Shown piece after piece: positions 1,976 to 45,739 of a stretch of 64,000 nt of DNA. Origin of the DNA: an uncultured Candidatus Saccharibacteria bacterium (GTDB taxonomy: Bacteria; Patescibacteriota; Minisyncoccia; UBA6257; 2-01-FULL-56-20); contig CAYIAX010000001.1 of assembly GCA_964361595.1 (NCBI GenBank), positions 32,100 to 96,099 on the forward strand, in the 5' to 3' direction. The notes beneath the pieces are model-generated. The model was not told the DNA's origin, made no database searches, and saw only the letters and a list, made by a program, of their open reading frames with translations. Position 1 is the first letter of the stretch, and each line of letters starts with the position of its first letter. A program made the translations under genes and the position numbers.

Positions 1976-3175
1976 ATGGCGGAAAAAGAAAAGTTTTCAC
2001 GGGCGAAACCTCACGTGAATGTGGGGACAATCGGGCACGTTGACCACGGCAAGACAACCTTGACCGCGGCCATTACGCATGTGCTCTTTAAGAAAGGTCT
2101 GGCGAAAAAGGAGGAAGGAGTCGATCAGATTGACAATGCGCCGGAAGAAAAAGCGCGCGGCATTACGATCGCTCTGCATCATTCCGAATATGAATCGGAA
2201 AAACGCCACTACGCGCACATTGACGCGCCAGGGCACGCCGACTACATCAAAAACATGATCACGGGCGCCGCCCAGATGGATGGCGCGATTTTAGTTGTCG
2301 CGGCTACGGATGGCCCGATGCCGCAAACGCGGGAACATGTGCTTTTGGCTCGCCAGGTAGGCGTGCCGGCTATCGTGGTCTTCTTGAACAAAGTTGATCA
2401 AGTTGACGATCCGGAGTTGGTGGACTTGGTTGAATCCGAAGTCCGCGAACTTTTGAAGAAATATGAATTTCCTGGAGATCAAGTGCCGGTAATTCGCGGT
2501 TCGGCCTTAAAAGCCTTGAATTCTGCTTCGCTTGACGATGCGGATGTAAAGCCGATTCTCGATCTCGTGAAAGCCTTGGATGATTTCATCCCGGAGCCTG
2601 TGCGCGAGCTCGATAAGCCGTTTCTGATGCCGATCGAAGACATTTTCTCGATTGAAGGACGCGGCACGGTTGTAACCGGGCGCGTTGAGCGCGGTAAGGT
2701 GAAGGTAAACGAAGAAGTGGAAGCGGTTGGCCTGCGACCGACGCAAAAGACGGTCGTAACCGGCATTGAAATGTTCAACAAACTCCTGGATGAAGGCATG
2801 GCGGGCGACAACGTCGGTATCTTACTCCGCGGGCTTAAGAAAGAAGATGTGGAGCGGGGACAAGTAATCGCGAAGCCTGGTTCTGTGACCCCGCACACCG
2901 AATTTGAATGCGAAGTCTATGTGCTGTCCAAAGAGGAAGGCGGCCGGCATACGCCATTTTTCGCCGGTTATAAGCCGCAGTTCTACATCCGCACGACTGA
3001 CGTAACTGGCGAAGTAATTTTGCCCCAGGGCACGGAAATGGTCATGCCGGGGGATACGATTAAGCTCACAGCTAAACTCATCTCACCCGTGGCCTTGGAA
3101 GAAAAGCAAAGGTTCGCCGTCCGCGAAGGCGGCAAAACGGTTGGTGCAGGCGTGGTCACTAAAATCATTAAGTAA
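1976..3175 (+). CDS. tuf: elongation factor Tu
   Basis: 399 aa. [11 protein letters not shown]-loop, DCPGHADY, NKVD, SALKAL. Full-length match to EF-Tu. Confidence 0.97.
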
Positions 3176-3242
3176 GGATATTAGCCACTGGGGTTTAGCC
3201 AATAGGGTGAACCCTAAACCCAAAACCCTAGACCCTTAAAAC

Positions 3243-4944: not shown

Positions 4945-5987
4945 TGATTTTCAGCCATTTTTTAAGGGATTTGGGCATAGACCTTGGCACCGCCAATTCG
5001 CTAATTTATGTGCGCAACCGCGGGCTTGTGATTAACGAGCCGTCGGTGGCGGCCGTAAATACCAAAACCAATCATATTCTTGCTGTTGGCGAAGAAGCGA
5101 AAAAGATGCTGGGACGGACACCGGCACATATCAATGTCGTGCGTCCGCTCGTGAACGGCGTGATTTCGAACTTTGAAATGACACAGGAGATGTTGCGGCA
5201 CTTTTTGCGCCGCCTGCAGGGCAAAGCGATGTTCTCGGGCTACCGCCGCGCGATCTTGGCGATCCCCAATAATTTGACCGAAGTCGAAAGAAAGTCCGTG
5301 GAAGACGTGGCCTTGAATGTCGGCTGCACAAAAGTTTACTTAGTTGAAGAACCGGTGGCGGCCGCTTTGGGGGCGAACCTGCCGATCGACACGCCGACCG
5401 CCAATCTCGTTATTGATATCGGTGGCGGCACGACCGATATCGCCGTAATCTCGATGGGTGGTACCGTGGTCTCGAAGACCCTGAAGGTGGCCGGCGACAA
5501 ATTGAACGAGGACATCATGCGGTTCGTGCGCGATGAATTCAAACTTGTGATCGGAGAGCCGACAGCCGAAATGGCGAAGATCGCCGTCGGTTCGGCCGCG
5601 CCGATCGACAGCCGCCTCGAGATCCCGATCCGCGGACGCGATTTAAGCACGGGCTTGCCGCGCGAAGTCATGATCAAAAATAACCATATACGCATGGCCA
5701 TTGGCAAATCCCTGCGTTACATCGTGGATTCCATCCATGAAGTGATCGAATCGACCCCGCCCGAACTCGCGGGCGATACCTTGAAGCAGGGAATTTGTCT
5801 TTGCGGCGGAGGAGCCCTTTTGCGCGGCTTGGACCAGGTGATCGAAAAAGAAACGGGGGTCGCGACCCAGATCGCCGAGGATCCCTTGACCTGCGTGGCC
5901 CGCGGCTTGGGGCAAATCGTGGACAATTTCGATCACCACCGCGAACTTTTGGATAATCCCTTGAAACCGCTCGTGATCAACCTCTAA
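4941..5987 (+). CDS. mreB: rod shape-determining actin homolog MreB
   Basis: 348 aa. GIDLGTANSLIYV, DIGGGTTDIAVIS, LCGGGALLRGLD. The start overlaps the proS stop (ATGATGA). Confidence 0.92.
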   Translation: MMIFSHFLRDLGIDLGTANSLIYVRNRGLVINEPSVAAVNTKTNHILAVGEEAKKMLGRTPAHINVVRPLVNGVISNFEMTQEMLRHFLRRLQGKAMFSGYRRAILAIPNNLTEVERKSVEDVALNVGCTKVYLVEEPVAAALGANLPIDTPTANLVIDIGGGTTDIAVISMGGTVVSKTLKVAGDKLNEDIMRFVRDEFKLVIGEPTAEMAKIAVGSAAPIDSRLEIPIRGRDLSTGLPREVMIKNNHIRMAIGKSLRYIVDSIHEVIESTPPELAGDTLKQGICLCGGGALLRGLDQVIEKETGVATQIAEDPLTCVARGLGQIVDNFDHHRELLDNPLKPLVINL

Positions 5988-7248: not shown

Positions 7249-9113
7249 TGGACGACAAAGAATTGGTTTTCGAAGAATCATTAAGCAGTGAATGGTCCGG
7301 CGACTTCGATGTGGTTGAGGTTCCCTTGAACGAGCGGCCGCTTTTTTTCGTCGGCATCGTGATTTTGGCGCTGGGGCTCATTGTAGGCATCCGCGTGGCT
7401 TATTTGGGTATCATCCGCGGCAATTTTTATGCCAAGCGGGCGGAAGCGAATGTAAGCTATGTTCGCCGGATCCCGGCGCCCCGCGGCCTTATCCTTGATG
7501 TTCGAGGAAAGGTTCTCGCTGAAAACAGGGCGGTTTTTTCGGCAGCCTTGAATCTGCGGGAATTTTTAAAGCAGAAAAAATACGAGGCAGAAACTTTGAG
7601 CGTGATTGAAGAGGTACTTGGGATCCCCCAGGCGGACGTGTTAACCATGATTAAGGATCGGAATTTGGAATTTTTATCCGAACCTCTGTTGCTTACAGCA
7701 GAACTTACGCAGCCGCAGATCGTGGCCCTAAAGAGCAAATCACTGCCTACGCTTGCCGTGGTAGACAACTTCCAGCGTGAATACCCCGGCGGCGAAATTT
7801 TTTCTTCGATCTTGGGTTATATCGGCCTGCCGACCAAGGAGGATCTCAAACGGAACGCTAATTTGGACGGGCAGGATATGGTCGGCAAAACAGGGCTCGA
7901 AAGTTTTTATGACGAACGCCTGCGGGGCAGGCCGGGGGCCGCCGTTAAAACCCGTGACGCTAAAGGGAATATTTTGAGCGAAGAAGAGAAAACCGATGCT
8001 AAAATTGGGGCTCCCTTGGAGCTTACGATCGACGCGGAGCTGCAGGAATATTTTTATGAACGGTTTCGCGAAGGGTTAATTTCTCTAGGGAGGACTTCCG
8101 GCGTTGGCTTGGCCTTGAACCCCCAAAATGGCGAAATACTTTCACTCATCAATTTCCCGGCTTATGACAACAATATTTTTACTCACTCTGGCAATTCGGA
8201 GGCGAAGAAAAACGTGCTCACATCGTCCGCGCGTCCGCTTTTTAATCGGGCGGTGAGCGGTCTTTACTCTCCCGGTTCGACGATTAAGCCTTTGGTTGCT
8301 ACCGCCGCTTTGACCGAAGGCGTGGTCACGCCGCAGAAGAGCGTTTTCTCGCCGGGGTATTTGGACGTGCCGAATCCTTATGACCCGGACCAGCCCACCA
8401 GATTTCTTGACTGGCGTTTTCAGGGCAATGTGAATGCGGCCTCCGCGATTGCGCAGTCCTCGAACGTATATTTTTATGCGGTCGGCGGCGGCGCTTTTGA
8501 CATCAAGGGCTTGGGAATCTCGCGCCTGCGCGAGTGGTGGCAGAAATTTCATTTGGGCGAAGCAACCGGCATTGATTTGCCCGGAGAGGCCAAGGGATTT
8601 CTGCCTTCGCCGGAATGGAAAGAAAAAGCGAGCGGCAAGGCCTGGCTTTTGGGTGACACATATAACGTGGCGATCGGGCAGGGAGATTTGATTATTACCC
8701 CCGTCCAGCTTTTGAGCTACATCGGCGCTATGGCTAACGGCGGGAAAATTTGGCGGCCAGTTATTGTGAAGACAGACGAGCACGAGGTCATTGCCGATGT
8801 AACTTTTGCTAAGCCCGCGATTGAAGAAGTGCAAAGGGGAATGATCTCTGCGATTACGGCGCCCATGGGCACTGCCCATTTATTGGCCGACTTGCCGATG
8901 GCTGTTGCCGGCAAAACCGGAAGCGCACAGATCCAAAACAAAGCTGCGGAAAACGCTTTTTTTGTGGGTTATGCACCCGCCGATCCGGCCTCTGGGCCGC
9001 CGCAAATTGCCATCCTGATCCTGGTTGAAAATTCGAAACAAGGGAGTTTAAATGCAGTCCCGATCGCCAAAGACGTACTCCGCTGGTATTACGAGCATCG
9101 AGTCAAAAAATAG
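7248..9113 (+). CDS. mrdA: penicillin-binding protein 2 (peptidoglycan D,D-transpeptidase)
   Basis: 621 aa. N-terminal TM segment and the transpeptidase motifs SGSTIKP (SxxK), SSN and KTGS. Synteny with mreBCD. Confidence 0.85.
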   Translation: MDDKELVFEESLSSEWSGDFDVVEVPLNERPLFFVGIVILALGLIVGIRVAYLGIIRGNFYAKRAEANVSYVRRIPAPRGLILDVRGKVLAENRAVFSAALNLREFLKQKKYEAETLSVIEEVLGIPQADVLTMIKDRNLEFLSEPLLLTAELTQPQIVALKSKSLPTLAVVDNFQREYPGGEIFSSILGYIGLPTKEDLKRNANLDGQDMVGKTGLESFYDERLRGRPGAAVKTRDAKGNILSEEEKTDAKIGAPLELTIDAELQEYFYERFREGLISLGRTSGVGLALNPQNGEILSLINFPAYDNNIFTHSGNSEAKKNVLTSSARPLFNRAVSGLYSPGSTIKPLVATAALTEGVVTPQKSVFSPGYLDVPNPYDPDQPTRFLDWRFQGNVNAASAIAQSSNVYFYAVGGGAFDIKGLGISRLREWWQKFHLGEATGIDLPGEAKGFLPSPEWKEKASGKAWLLGDTYNVAIGQGDLIITPVQLLSYIGAMANGGKIWRPVIVKTDEHEVIADVTFAKPAIEEVQRGMISAITAPMGTAHLLADLPMAVAGKTGSAQIQNKAAENAFFVGYAPADPASGPPQIAILILVENSKQGSLNAVPIAKDVLRWYYEHRVKK

Positions 9114-9127
9114 TATATAATTAAGGC

Positions 9128-9295
9128 ATGGACAGCCTGATGGGGCTTCTGGTCGTCGTCCTCATAATTCTGGCGATAGTGCTCGTTTTCGAGGTCGCAA
9201 GCCTATACCGGAAAGTGCGCAAGCTCCGCAAGGTAATTATCGATCTCGAGGGCGACGAAGAAGAAGTCCATGAAGTTGGCAGAAACGGGGATTAA
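9128..9295 (+). CDS. small membrane protein (55 aa), probably expressed leaderless
   Basis: ATG at 9128 lies 6 nt after a TATAAT box (9116-9121). Hydrophobic N-terminus LLVVVLIILAIVLVF, acidic C-terminus. Below the 60-aa ORF-track cutoff. Confidence 0.35.
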   Translation: MDSLMGLLVVVLIILAIVLVFEVASLYRKVRKLRKVIIDLEGDEEEVHEVGRNGD

Positions 9296-9597
9296 TCCCT
9301 CACCCTTGAAGCATCTGGTTATGTTTTTCGTTTATCTTTTAAAAGGTCTAAACAGATGAACCAAGGCAGGGAATTCTATATTGGTTTTGCTGAAGATTTA
9401 AAAAAGAGAATAGAAAAACATAACCAGGGACTGGTTCAAACAACAAGGAATATGAGACCATTAGAATTGCTGTACTGTGAAATTTATAAATCAAAAAAGG
9501 ATGCCCTGCTCCGTGAAAAGCGATTGAAGCAATTTGCCAAAGGATTCGCTTCGCTAAAGAGTCGGCTTCGTTATTCAATGCTTCAAGGGTGAGGGAT
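9295..9597. mobile_element. GIY-YIG minielement: 237-nt GIY-YIG gene bounded by perfect 20-bp inverted repeats
   Basis: ATCCCTCACCCTTGAAGCAT at 9295-9314 and its exact reverse complement at 9578-9597 bracket ORF 9356..9592. Confidence 0.5.
9356..9592 (+). CDS. GIY-YIG nuclease family protein (UPF0213/YhbQ-like, 78 aa)
   Basis: FYIGFAEDLKKRIEKHNQG ... LLYCEIYKSKKDALLREKRLKQ matches the GIY-YIG core (GIY ... YIG-like, then R ... E ... N). Confidence 0.7.
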   Translation: MNQGREFYIGFAEDLKKRIEKHNQGLVQTTRNMRPLELLYCEIYKSKKDALLREKRLKQFAKGFASLKSRLRYSMLQG

Positions 9598-10588
9598 GAG
9601 CGAATTCCGCGAAGATGTCGTATCCGGCGATTGGATTATCGTCGCGCCGGAGCGGGCCAAACGCCCGCACGAATTTTTAAAAAAGCGGGTAAAGCGCGTG
9701 CCTGCGGATCGCGCGACTTGTCCTTTTGAAAATCTGGAAAAATCCGGGAATTGGCCGCCGATCTTAAGTTGGCCGAACGAGAAAACCTGGCGGAACGTAG
9801 TAGTTCCAAATAAGTATCCGGCGCTCAAACACGAAAAGCTGTGCGTGTTTTCGATTCCCAAGGGTCCCTATCATTATTTTGAAGGCGCCGGCCATCATGA
9901 TTTGCTTATTTCACGCGATCATAAAAAAACCTTGGCAGATCTAACGGTGACGGAGGGAACCGAACTCCTACAGCTCCTACAAAAAAGGTACTTGATGCTC
10001 GCGGGGGACAAATGCCTGCTTTACGCTTCGACTTTCTTCAATTGGGGCGAAAGTGTCGGCGCTTCTCTTTACCACCCGCACTATCAGATTTTAACTTTAC
10101 CGATTATCCCGCCCGATATTTTGCATTCTTTGACCGGATCGCAAAAATATTTTAAAACCCATCGCCGGTGCGTGCATTGCGACATGCTCGCCTTCGAACG
10201 CAGGGCAAAATCGCGCGTCGTAGCGGCCGTAAAGGGAGCCGTAGCCATCGCGCCTTATGTTTCGCGCCAGCCATTTGAAATAAGGATTTATCCCACTGCC
10301 CACACTCCCTTTTTCGAGAAAACTAGCGAAGCATCTTTGCGCGCGGTCGTTGCGGTTTTGAGGGCAACCCTGCGGAAAATGCGTTCCGGCCTCCGCGACC
10401 CGGATTTGAACTTTTTCATTCATACAGCGCCCTTAAAGCAGCAGGAAAAATATGGTTACTATCACTGGCATATCGAAGTTTTGCCCAAAATCACGATCCC
10501 GGGCGGCTTCGAGCTTTCGACTGGAATTGATATTAATGTCATTGATCCCGATCGCGCCGCTCGGCTCTTGCGAAAAGCTCAAAGCTAA
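9596..10588 (+). CDS. galT: galactose-1-phosphate uridylyltransferase family (HIT-like) protein
   Basis: 330 aa. HPHYQI (HxHxQ) nucleotidyl-transfer motif, Cys/His zinc motif (CPFE ... CVHC), duplicated half-barrel organisation. Confidence 0.6.
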   Translation: MSEFREDVVSGDWIIVAPERAKRPHEFLKKRVKRVPADRATCPFENLEKSGNWPPILSWPNEKTWRNVVVPNKYPALKHEKLCVFSIPKGPYHYFEGAGHHDLLISRDHKKTLADLTVTEGTELLQLLQKRYLMLAGDKCLLYASTFFNWGESVGASLYHPHYQILTLPIIPPDILHSLTGSQKYFKTHRRCVHCDMLAFERRAKSRVVAAVKGAVAIAPYVSRQPFEIRIYPTAHTPFFEKTSEASLRAVVAVLRATLRKMRSGLRDPDLNFFIHTAPLKQQEKYGYYHWHIEVLPKITIPGGFELSTGIDINVIDPDRAARLLRKAQS

Positions 10589-45597: not shown

Positions 45598-45668
45598 TTG
45601 CCGGGCAGGGATTCGAACCCCGACTTGTCCTGAATCTATTGAAGGATAAACGACTTTCCCGCACAGAG
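45598..45668 (-). pseudogene. degenerate tRNA-like sequence (intact T-arm GGGGTTCGAATCCCT and acceptor-like 3' end, no foldable D or anticodon arms)
   Basis: The reverse complement carries CGGGG-TTCGAAT-CCCTG plus CCCGGCA. The 5' half cannot form a 7-bp acceptor stem or a canonical anticodon stem. Only about 64 nt are available. Confidence 0.3.
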
Positions 45669-45739
45669 CTGGGGGACAGGGATTCGAACCCCGATACCAT
45701 CCTTCAAAGGGATGTGTCCTACCATTAGACGATCCCCCA
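45669..45739 (-). tRNA. tRNA-Gln (anticodon UUG)
   Basis: Reverse complement TGGGGGA-TC-GTCT-AATGGTA-GGAC-A-CATCC-CTTTGAA-GGATG-GTAT-CGGGG-TTCGAAT-CCCTG-TCCCCCA-G. Cloverleaf with a 7-bp acceptor, anticodon TTG, A37, discriminator G. No encoded CCA. Confidence 0.8.

Follow-up and report, generated by a model that had tools for sequence, protein, structure and literature searches.

Decaying copy of a miniature, mobile GIY-YIG element with hairpin-forming ends between two genes of a Candidatus Saccharibacteria genome

The 64,000-nucleotide stretch of an uncultured Candidatus Saccharibacteria genome analyzed here (contig CAYIAX010000001.1; hereafter the window) contains a small GIY-YIG gene enclosed by a perfect 20-nt inverted repeat, positioned between a small open reading frame and a galT-like gene, all on the forward strand. 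A repeat search places the arms at 9295–9314 (ATCCCTCACCCTTGAAGCAT) and 9578–9597 (ATGCTTCAAGGGTGAGGGAT), 100% complementary and separated by 263 nt. The outer 13 nt of the left arm are conserved in a wider family described below, and the inner 7 nt are variable and covary with the right arm. The preliminary description of perfect 20-bp repeats around a 78-aa GIY-YIG gene therefore holds, the gene matching Pfam PF01541 at E=1.6e-11. Upstream lies a 55-aa ORF (9128–9295) with one predicted transmembrane helix, an orphan with no Pfam family above the cut-off and matches confined to the same organism. Its TAA codon occupies 9293–9295, and the final base, 9295, is also the first base of the left arm, in agreement with the earlier placement of the left repeat at this stop codon. 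The right arm encodes the end of the nuclease reading frame, MLQG and a stop, and terminates with the AT of the next ATG (9596–9598), which opens a 330-aa gene (9596–10588) assigned by profile match to the HIT superfamily as galT-like/DUF4921. This ATG is the native start, as orthologues open with MSEFRQD, MSELRQD or MSDFRQD at their own ATG.

The right repeat had also been credited with supplying both the start codon and the Shine-Dalgarno sequence of the galT-like gene. It does provide the A and T of the ATG. The interpretation of GGGTGAGGG as a Shine-Dalgarno sequence is rejected, because the genome rarely uses such motifs (of 53 long ORFs in the window, only ~6 are preceded by one) and the orthologues lack one. 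Allowing up to 3 mismatches, the 20-mer arm matches the window only at its own two sites (0.00 matches expected from shuffled sequence), which speaks against the generic terminator that had been considered. The 303-bp unit is byte-identical across four independent Hainich H43 groundwater assemblies, and an assembly artefact is thus ruled out as its origin. Without the unit, the junction is predicted to read ...AACGGGGATTAATGAGCGAATTCC...

Comparison with intact relatives reveals that the GIY-YIG gene of the window copy is frameshifted, a feature missed in the preliminary description together with the nested repeat discussed below. The real start is the ATG at 9321, and the first 12 codons (MFFVYLLKGLNR, followed by a stop; 9321–9359), which include β-strand 1 and the "GIY" tyrosine, are stranded in a frame different from the rest. 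The source is an 11-nt insertion, GGTCTAAACAG, at about 9345–9355, its placement depending on the alignment; the corresponding columns, 58–68, are gapped in 41 of 41 other elements, and the insertion is therefore private to the window copy. A restart ATG directly 3' of the insertion opens the callable 78-aa ORF (9356–9592), which comprises the GIY-YIG domain minus β1 and ends at a TGA (9590–9592) inside the right arm. It scores 44.7 bits against PF01541 (cut-off 22.6 bits), and repair of the frame improves the match to E=2.7e-12. As the private insertion shifts the first β-strand and its catalytic tyrosine out of frame, the window copy is probably a nuclease-dead passenger. A programmed frameshift was considered and rejected, since no slippery site is present and the private insertion accounts for the shift.

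A second inverted repeat, 26 nt and 88% complementary, is nested within the first. Its 5' strand (9315–9340) holds the true GIY-YIG start codon (9321–9323), and its 3' strand (9402–9427) lies within the region coding for KKRIEKHNQ; both strands are supported by predicted folds and by covariation in the family. A scan of 9000–9900 with Rfam covariance models returned nothing near a gathering score, so that no group I or II intron and no known RNA family is recognised. The best sub-threshold matches were miRNA-precursor models, typical of any long hairpin. Promoter and terminator predictions remained at chance level, with no convincing promoter of the unit's own on the coding strand.

The nuclease assignment is supported by structure prediction and residue conservation. 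An AF2 model of an intact relative (pLDDT 92.8) has the strand-strand-helix-helix-strand-helix order expected for GIY-YIG, and its nearest structures are UPF0213 BH0048 and Slx1; I-TevI and UvrC domains match as well. In the family alignment no substitution occurs at Y16, R26 or E62, with conservation of 90% or more at Y5 and H30. The predicted protein consists of the 85-aa catalytic domain only, without a DNA-binding module; among GIY-YIG nucleases it falls in the UPF0213/Slx1/Ssn branch. A profile comparison with hhalign aligns it to an Azospirillum GIY-YIG protein (probability 98.1%, E=7.7e-14, 33% identity) whose gene is flanked by four canonical NTS/SRM hairpins; the best structure matches of both proteins are UPF0213, and the candidate conserved domains are cd10448 (Ssn) and cd10456 (UPF0213). 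The Azospirillum hairpins, ATCCCCGCG..CGCGGGGAT, have the same ATCCC...GGGAT ends as the CPR arms. The SRM motif HGTCWYN(0-2)YYVSBRHN(0-5)WNVSBRGN(0-2)RNCYNB recovers the 4 SRMs around the Azospirillum gene as a positive control, and yields 0 matches in the window and 2 chance-level matches in 842 kb of CPR loci.

The window unit belongs to a family of miniature elements of ~290 bp in CPR/Patescibacteria, of which it is an inserted and now decaying copy. Searches of CPR genomes and metagenomes identified ~60 homologous units with the same arms, consisting of 13 conserved nucleotides, ATCCCTCACCCTT, and 7 covarying nucleotides; such arms accompany nearly every homologue of at least 50% identity. 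An intact element carries one 85–91-aa single-domain GIY-YIG nuclease gene within a 20-bp terminal inverted repeat that is perfect or nearly so. The usual seat is that of the window copy: the first base completes an upstream stop codon, and the final two bases are the AT of a downstream ATG. Among 42 elements, 38 are followed by G, the ATG at the element end opens a real ORF in 35, and the stop of an upstream ORF lies on or adjoins the left arm in 21. The nuclease ORF is intact in 37 and pseudogenised in 5, the window copy among them. The orientation is always that of host transcription.

Several comparisons provide evidence for mobility. First, elements L009 and L011 are 96.6% identical within flanks that are ~45% identical, the level of random sequence, and the genes downstream are nearly all different in the 15 loci examined (galT-like, def, L35, smc, pilB-like and others, with smc occurring twice). 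Second, the metagenome-assembled genome (MAG) JAUYKI01 has two differing left junctions and two differing right junctions, with contigs that break inside the gene, and thus at least 2 copies of the unit. Third, the GC content of the element is below that of its flanks in 13 of 14 loci. Fourth, orthologous galT-like loci at 61–64% amino acid identity (the closest relatives being only 64% identical) carry neither the GIY-YIG gene nor the repeat, so that the gene does not occur there without its arms. Because near-identical copies occupy unrelated flanks, at least 2 copies are present in one MAG, and the unit is lower in GC than its host and missing from the galT-like locus of relatives, the unit, judged by these comparisons, is a mobile insertion. 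Its terminal inverted repeats and differing genomic contexts are among the features by which insertion sequences and MITEs are recognized. Contigs L197 and L020 each carry two different elements, and the window a single copy. The sole ORF of the element encodes the GIY-YIG domain, and no DDE, HUH, serine or tyrosine transposase is present within it. Insertion sequences such as IS200 are larger, at roughly 700 bp. No exact empty-site allele was found, none of the fetched loci spanning the joined flanks of any element, and no clear target-site duplication was found either. The AT...AT ends can be read as belonging to the repeat or as TAATG duplicated over 2 bp, an ambiguity that follows from their self-complementarity; L007, L017 and L209 are inconsistent with an AT duplication.

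Members of related subfamilies reside within RNA genes, at the tip of 23S helix 25 (L036), in another, neighbouring 23S hairpin loop (L023), at the tip of 16S helix 44 (L029) and in P3 of RNase P (L022 and L035). All are co-oriented with the host RNA, and their arms begin with CCCC(G/T)C. The outermost CCCC/GGGG of these arms aligns with the host helix itself, and part of the repeat in these relatives may therefore be host sequence. Units of 100–150 nt that have the same arms and no ORF are also found, as single extra units scattered on contigs of family elements, in line with the MITE-like option raised for the window unit. Their interiors share no significant similarity with the gene or with each other apart from two faint resemblances at the peptide level (E=0.9 and 6.8), and simple deletion derivation is rejected, as the interiors are not recognisably from the nuclease gene. 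Short solo hairpins with ATCCC...GGGAT ends occur in L197 and L231.

Pairing of the arms is maintained across the family. Of 720 pair cells, 95.7% are paired, versus 35–54% when the partner is slid by 1–3 columns, and pairing ends sharply at base pair 20. Both sides have changed in 12 of the 20 arm pairs, and compensatory cells number 80, versus 16.6±3.6 in shuffles, none of which (0/500) reaches 80. RNAalifold, run unguided, recovers the same stem. Since the arms covary, the alignment indicates that the outer stem is under selection, either for pairing or for arm identity. In the inner helix, positions near the ATG and the K-H codons covary across the family, codon 3 with the codon two before the His (TTC/GAA, TGC/GCA, TAC/GTA, TAT/ATA, TTT/AAA), and this second helix buries the nuclease start codon. 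For the unit, folding z-scores reach -6.3 as RNA and, on the two DNA strands, -6.2 and -5.7. Pairs of the outer stem that depart from Watson-Crick geometry comprise 16 A·C versus 7 G·U, counted over pairs that are not phylogenetically independent. With A·C the more frequent, the stem lacks the wobble pairs that would mark selection acting on the sense RNA, and the counts were set aside as uninformative on whether the constraint acts at the RNA or the DNA level.

The element relates to two known kinds of system, the Ssn nucleases with their SRM hairpins and the intervening sequences (IVS) of rRNA genes. Ssn nucleases bind an ssDNA hairpin and cut beside it; a split hairpin on separate strands is still cut, and activity is lost in the variant Y6A (PMC11893778). 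As in the Ssn/SRM systems (Chenal et al. 2025, PMC11893778), the CPR protein is a small single-domain GIY-YIG protein (~85–97 aa), its gene is bracketed by hairpin-forming sequences with ATCCC...GGGAT-type ends, and gene-less hairpin units occur in an architecture like that of insertion sequences. Several properties differ. Each CPR flank is half of one 20-bp hairpin with the gene in its loop, whereas Ssn genes lie between two complete 28-nt hairpins; the published motif (HGTCWY...RNCYNB) fails to match the CPR arms; and the C-terminal helix is distinct (KQFAKGFASLKSRL versus KKWNRDWKIRLIE). Ssn/SRM hairpins are dispersed in tens to hundreds, whereas the CPR family lacks high-copy repeat expansion, and the CPR units, unlike SRMs, are seated precisely in stop/start junctions and RNA-gene loops.

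An ORF-bearing rRNA intervening sequence bounded by inverted repeats is excised by RNase III (PMC4990558). Shared with the IVS of Coxiella, Leptospira and Salmonella are a long stem built from the terminal inverted repeats, an ORF within its loop that is prone to decay and, for relatives in rRNA, a position in place of a peripheral helix tip (L036, in 23S helix 25, being at a classical IVS site) (PMC4990558). The cargo is a GIY-YIG nuclease rather than S23p, and the locations are broader. IVS lie in 23S helices 9, 25 or 45, whereas CPR units are additionally found in RNase P P3, at the 16S helix-44 tip and at protein-gene junctions, the window copy being one of the last group. GIY-YIG ORFs in CPR rRNA genes have been reported, and the available text of that survey describes no association with group I or II introns and spread by homing as unlikely (Tsurumaki et al. 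2024, PMC11270868). The proteins of L023, L029 and L036 are probably the same as those ORFs. As far as its text goes, the survey covers insertions in rRNA genes only, with RNase P copies, protein-gene junction copies and ORF-less units unreported, and the term "inverted repeat" is absent from it.

Two further comparisons are looser. Rickettsia palindromic elements and Correia-type MITEs are hairpin units (100–150 bp) whose presence is tolerated in RNA genes as well as in expressed genes; the ORF-less CPR units are of similar size, whereas those elements are high-copy and enclose no nuclease gene. In RAYT/REPIN and IS200/IS605 systems a small nuclease gene is flanked by hairpin repeats that are thought to be ssDNA targets. 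This comparison is also raised in PMC11893778. Non-autonomous hairpin units alongside and the lack of a clear target-site duplication are shared with the CPR family. The enzyme differs, a hydrolytic GIY-YIG nuclease versus a Y1 HUH transposase with a covalent intermediate, as does the hairpin: in CPR the two termini pair over the full length of the element, whereas in those systems the hairpins are subterminal and local.

The best explanation of the data as a whole, which we consider reasonably probable, is that the window holds a decaying copy of a mobile, hairpin-bounded GIY-YIG element whose life cycle combines an Ssn-like step on ssDNA with an RNase III step. By analogy with the Ssn relatives, the nuclease would recognise the hairpin into which the arms of its element fold in ssDNA, and a nick at the hairpin base would allow the unit to be mobilised or copied. 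In the host transcript the arms would form a 20-bp duplex that, by analogy with the stems cleaved out of rRNA IVS, serves as an RNase III-type processing site, and after such processing an operon or structured RNA that carries the insertion would show no phenotype. The inner helix may hold translation of the nuclease low, and the window copy would have persisted as a passenger after the 11-nt frameshifting insertion. The full form of this proposal is more tentative: that the ~290-bp units are autonomous mobile elements, the 85-aa protein reading its own ends as a split ssDNA hairpin, and that insertions excise themselves at the RNA level, such that neither the essential operons whose stop/start junctions they colonise nor the rRNA and RNase P RNA in whose loops they lie would be harmed. 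If correct, a selfish DNA element would need little more than one 85-aa domain and 2×20 bp, and the family would represent a parasite at the level of DNA whose "silent insertion" strategy resembles that of introns but dispenses with a ribozyme, and a way into compact operons and essential RNAs without disruption. It would also provide a naturally occurring "split-hairpin" form of the Ssn ssDNA nucleases, a recent discovery of biotechnological interest since a hairpin sets their specificity, and would solve the puzzle posed by non-intron insertions with GIY-YIG ORFs in CPR rRNA genes.

A domesticated, Ssn-like host system is an unlikely alternative, in which the nuclease, as in Neisseria, restricts or shapes the ssDNA that enters by natural transformation, the hairpins are genomic target marks and the gene happens to reside in one of them. 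Transformation control is the published role of Ssn (PMC11893778), and the homology to an SRM-flanked Ssn-type protein, the scattered ORF-less units with the same arms on the same contigs and the short solo hairpins in L197 and L231 would all suit such a role. Target marks, however, are hard to reconcile with a very low copy number (the window contains one unit and no other arm), with pseudogenes in 5 of 42 copies including that of the window, with a unit GC below host GC and a patchy spread over unrelated loci, or with the absence of the canonical SRM motif.

The mobile homing-type cassette of the preliminary description stands as regards mobility, given dozens of unrelated junctions and at least 2 copies in one MAG, and fails as regards classical homing. 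We consider it decidedly improbable that a free-standing homing endonuclease cuts the double-stranded empty allele and is copied in by recombinational repair, the repeat either arising incidentally from the target or serving to stabilise the transcript as a stem. The GIY-YIG fold is one used by homing endonucleases, relatives occupy conserved positions in rRNA and RNase P of the sort that homing typically targets, and GIY-YIG ORFs in CPR rRNA insertions are already on record in the available text of PMC11270868. Homing cannot, however, place a close subfamily in many unrelated junctions, a bare 85-aa catalytic domain lacks the DNA-binding module, the arms travel and covary with the gene, and the same text places the rRNA ORFs outside homing spread. 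Finally, the insulating stem of ~300 nt that had been suggested is borne out insofar as the stem is selected, with strong covariation of the arms. An RNA stem that belongs wholly to the host, is passed on vertically and serves to couple or insulate the expression of the neighbouring genes, with an incidental ORF, is largely refuted by sequence comparison and very improbable, since, for all that the stem brackets the intergenic space exactly (overlapping the stop and start codons), has strong folding z-scores and hides a start codon in a helix, the same arms and ORF recur at unrelated loci of distant CPR lineages with up to 96.6% identity, orthologous loci of relatives lack the unit and its composition is foreign.

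The element that we favour as mobile is common in CPR bacteria, yet undescribed as a selfish element in the literature searched. Its ORF passed no family threshold in NCBIfam, PHROGs or PADLOC. Paired-arm patterns at gene-sized and 130-nt spacings gave 0 matches in IMG/VR viral contigs, and the family is therefore not phage-borne in that collection. At least 120 viral matches to the 14-mer AATCCCTCACCCTT were dismissed as chance, none having a paired arm. For annotation, the recurrent unit breaks CPR assemblies, and its right end creates the apparent ribosome-binding region and the start codon of many genes.

The 78-aa ORF at 9356–9592 encodes a GIY-YIG domain (PF01541, E=1.6e-11) and, as the preliminary description had claimed, lies within a perfect 20-nt inverted repeat; a repeat search places the left arm, ATCCCTCACCCTTGAAGCAT, at 9295–9314 and the right arm, the reverse complement of ATCCCTCACCCTTGAAGCAT, at 9578–9597. 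The same description had the left repeat beginning at the stop codon of the upstream 55-aa ORF (9128–9295, + strand) and the right repeat supplying the ATG of the galT-like gene (9596–10588, + strand; HIT superfamily/DUF4921), and both junctions hold: the last base of the TAA at 9293–9295 is the first base of the left arm, and the A and T of the ATG at 9596 are the final two bases of the right arm. This 303-bp unit is AT-rich (32–41% GC vs ~50% in its surroundings), and four independent assemblies of Hainich aquifer well H43 carry it in identical form. The proposed search for other copies of the 20-mer finds none in the 64-kb window at up to 3 mismatches, where shuffles give 0.00 expected matches. 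At 9288–9299 a small local palindrome, GGGATTAATCCC, spans the end of the 55-aa ORF and the first bases of the left arm; its GGGAT half is similar to the right-arm tip, perhaps by chance. An SD-like motif precedes ~6 of the 53 long ORFs in the window, and the genome seems to initiate mostly without one; a single tRNA gene (Gln, 45668–45739) is present in the 64 kb.

The unit is an inserted mobile element bounded by an inverted repeat. Comparisons with fetched loci (L-numbers, mostly CPR (Patescibacteria) genomes and metagenomes) provide several lines of evidence. First, the elements of L009 and L011 are 96.6% identical, and their 300-nt flanks are ~45% identical, which equals random. Second, the MAG JAUYKI01 contains two distinct left and two distinct right junctions, with contigs that break inside the gene. 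Third, L197 and L020 each carry two different elements on one contig, with arms own to each. Fourth, GC content is lower in the element than in the flank at 13 of 14 loci. Finally, the closest galT-like orthologues (61–64% amino acid identity) retain the neighborhood: L052 and L054 have the order large upstream ORF, galT-like gene, 116-aa ORF, L21, L055 has the downstream part in common, and the three share the start site (MSEF/MSEL/MSDF). When this junction is compared among relatives, as had been suggested, neither a GIY-YIG gene nor an arm lies upstream of the orthologue in L052, L054 or L055; an exact empty allele was not found among the fetched loci. Other palindromes, unrelated to the arms, occur in L052 (2920–3000) and L054 (2925–2965 and 4011–4052); those in the spacers upstream of the galT-like gene read AGAAACTAGAA…TTCTAGTTTCT and a repeated GGAAGTTGAACTTCC, and L054 has a 20-bp hairpin with CCCCTCAT/ATGAGGGG downstream of the gene.

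The ends of the element merge with host stop and start codons, and the element is everywhere co-oriented with host transcription. Among 42 non-redundant elements, a G directly follows the element in 38, the ATG so formed begins a real ORF downstream in 35, TA directly precedes the element in 24, and 21 have an upstream ORF of ≥40 codons whose stop lies on the left arm or next to it. Downstream genes are varied (galT-like, peptide deformylase, L35, SMC, PilB-like, GTPase and others, including a P-loop NTPase that is possibly coupling-protein-like), and the placement at gene junctions is both unusual and consistent. No consistent target-site duplication was found at element ends.

Distant homologues (40–50% identity), with arms that begin CCCC(G/T)C, lie inside structured RNA genes and always in the sense orientation: at the tip of 23S helix 25 (L036), in a neighboring 23S hairpin (L023, 312-nt insert), at the tip of 16S helix 44 (L029, 295-nt insert), and in the P3 stem-loop of RNase P RNA (L022 and L035 by Rfam, L032 by sequence). 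The outermost CCCC/GGGG of their arms lines up with the helix of the host RNA. Between the 16S and 23S copies, however, 15 of 16 arm bases are identical, and the greater part of the repeat thus moves with the element. The rRNA intervening sequence (IVS) of Coxiella 23S is 428–444 nt long; its termini pair into a 28-bp stem whose loop holds an ORF, and RNase III excises it (PMC4990558). L036 matches this type of insertion exactly, in helix 25, except that its cargo is GIY-YIG. In L023 (~2733–2900 and 5456–5661), the 23S rRNA gene with the GIY-YIG unit additionally contains a ~130-nt AT-rich ORF-less insert in the helix-25-equivalent stem, and a group I intron match lies just past the LSU alignment.

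The homologue set comprises 47 loci from GTDB species genomes (chiefly Patescibacteria MAGs, plus a few bins assigned to other phyla) and 80 from a metagenome scan. The same kind of repeat brackets almost every homologue at ≥~50% identity; the outer 13 nt of the arms are conserved (ATCCCTCACCCTT/AAGGGTGAGGGAT), and the inner 7 nt vary between elements with complementarity kept. Pairing of the arms is under selection. Across 36 distinct arm pairs, 95.7% of cells are standard pairs vs 35–54% with the partner slid by 1–3 columns, both-sided changes occur in 12 of the 20 pairs of the stem, and there are 80 compensatory cells vs 16.6±3.6 in shuffles (0/500 as high). Pairing ends abruptly after base pair 20, and RNAalifold independently recovers the arm stem as the only consensus helix of the whole-element alignment. 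The start codon of the nuclease is likewise buried in a helix: an inner helix is kept in which the ATG pairs with the CAT of an invariant His codon ~87 nt downstream, and codon 3 changes in step with the codon two positions ahead of this His (TTC/GAA, TGC/GCA, TAC/GTA, TAT/ATA, TTT/AAA). Because these coupled changes are non-synonymous, base pairing is selected over protein sequence at those positions.

The family profile matches UPF0213 BH0048 (E=1.3e-7), EF2693 and Slx1 in the PDB, and a confident AlphaFold2 model of an intact member (pLDDT 92.8) matches the same structures, Slx1 with rmsd ~2 Å and ~32% identity. NCBIfam, PHROGs and PADLOC return no family above threshold for the nuclease. 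A profile search of 1.84 billion representatives yields 2,477 clusters at E≤1e-10 and only two at E≤1e-30, which marks the close subfamily as a narrow part of a very large mini GIY-YIG protein family. Single-domain GIY-YIG proteins of cd10448 (Ssn) are ssDNA-specific, site-specific nucleases (Chenal et al. 2025, PMC11893778). Their binding site is a hairpin repeat (NTS/SRM), and they cleave immediately upstream, even with the hairpin halves on separate oligonucleotides, and their genes typically have such hairpins on their flanks, in an NTS-ssnA-NTS layout that resembles an insertion sequence (PMC11893778).

A tblastn search of plasmids identified an Azospirillum lipoferum gene between sufB and sufC surrounded by four perfect NTS/SRM hairpins, CGTCATCCCCGCGAAGGCGGGGATCCAG; this insertion inside the suf operon is analogous to the placement of the CPR element. 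The CPR family aligns with the Azospirillum protein at 98.1% hhalign probability (E=7.7e-14, 33% identity). The gene, which encodes a 97-aa Ssn-type GIY-YIG protein on plasmid AZO_p3 of strain 4B (L257, NC_016623.1 255506–255799), has its hairpins as two inverted pairs of canonical NTS/SRM. The SRM stem ATCCCCGCG...CGCGGGGAT and the CPR arms have ATCCC...GGGAT ends in common; no match to the degenerate SRM motif as published occurs in the window, and next to none in 842 kb of CPR loci. Complete local palindromes, CCCCGCCCTTCGCGAAGGGCGGGG, flank a distant CPR homologue (L252/L254), and L031, L231 and L241 carry CCCCGCCCTT from these palindromes in their split arms; both layouts, complete and split, therefore fall within the wider family. 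In L252 (5340–5940; L254 is alike) this homologue, at 43% identity, sits among tRNA-like repeats that have CCCCGCCCTTCGCGAAGGGCGGGG in place of part of the tRNA body, and the gene comes after a tRNA 5' half and the palindrome. The element has features of both Ssn/SRM systems and rRNA IVS, two kinds already known. No published description of non-rRNA copies or of the hairpin-bounded unit was found in the literature searched.

Since the nuclease is homologous to Ssn and Slx1, both structure-selective enzymes, it may recognize the two-arm hairpin in ssDNA and nick the hairpin base, leading to spread. In RNA, the 20-bp arm duplex would be an RNase III-type substrate whose processing would free the upstream and downstream host RNAs; we propose that this release allows insertions in operons and structural RNAs to be tolerated. 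The inner helix would throttle translation of the nuclease. Domestication of an Ssn-like system by the host would accord with the same homology, and we consider it unlikely. Classical dsDNA homing appears improbable; GIY-YIG ORFs have been reported in non-intron insertions of CPR rRNA, and their spread by homing was judged unlikely (PMC11270868), in a text that leaves inverted repeats unmentioned. A purely host regulatory stem is highly improbable and is contradicted by the distribution of the element; the first proposal of a mobile homing-type cassette, a MITE-like unit or an insulating stem is partly right, in that the unit is mobile.

The copy in the window is best seen as a decaying passenger of its host. 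Homologues are 85–88 aa long with the N-terminus MFFVY(I/V)LRS..., and an intact 85–91-aa ORF is present in 37 of the 42 non-redundant elements; the window copy is one of the five broken ones. Its 9321–9359 segment keeps the first codons of the homologues (MFFVYLLKGLNR*), but in a different frame, and an 11-nt insertion at ~9345–9355 is unique to it in the alignment of 42 elements, so the callable 78-aa ORF lacks β-strand 1 and the 'GIY' tyrosine. Mutation of the equivalent tyrosine in Neisseria SsnA (Y6A) abolishes cleavage and leaves binding intact (PMC11893778). Nuclease activity of the window copy is unlikely owing to the frameshift, and the host probably tolerates the copy because the neighbors' stop and start codons are intact. 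A nested inverted repeat (9315–9340 with 9402–9427; 26 nt, 88%) joins the terminal one to give a continuous 46-nt 5' strand; this strand pairs first with the unit's 3' end and thereafter with the segment that codes for KKRIEKHNQ. The same fold is obtained for RNA and both DNA strands (z-scores -6.3 for RNA, -6.2 and -5.7 for DNA).

Arm-bounded units are bimodal in size, ~275–325 nt with the gene and ~100–150 nt without an ORF. ORF-less units are nested in or abut gene-bearing elements at L005 3266–3395 and L008 2868–2993, and occur elsewhere on the gene-bearing contigs of L012, L183, L191, L205, L212 and L227. Eight units with ATCCCTCACCCTT-type arms are 126–137 nt long, several of them between TAA and ATG. 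Their interiors have no recognizable kinship to the gene or to each other, and 'MITE-like' thus describes form only, with origin not proven. L216–L219 carry a shorter form of 248 nt, whose gene is deleted at the N-terminal end, and short solo hairpins with ATCCC...GGGAT ends occur in L197 and L231. The 30-nt hairpin at L197 3173–3202, ATCCCCCACATAACTTGTTATGTGGGGGAT, precedes by 2 nt a gene-bearing element whose arms are the same; it may represent an empty target or the footprint of an excision. At L005 61–166, a tRNA-Val gene (81–153) lies inside a 16-bp inverted repeat of like style, CCCCTCACTCTTGTGTG/CACATAAGAGTGAGGGG, so such arms can enclose cargo besides the nuclease gene. Near a contig end, the inverted repeat at L201 9773–10302 continues for 138 nt past the arms and on into the flanking sequence; the element hairpin probably seeded a fold-back artefact of assembly. 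Irregular copies include one with two tandem right arms (…GGTGAGGGATGAAGGGTGAGGGAT) at L213 ~3150–3192 and, on a contig of 137× coverage, the element at L202 1329–1674, which is 346 nt long and has an additional right arm in its interior.
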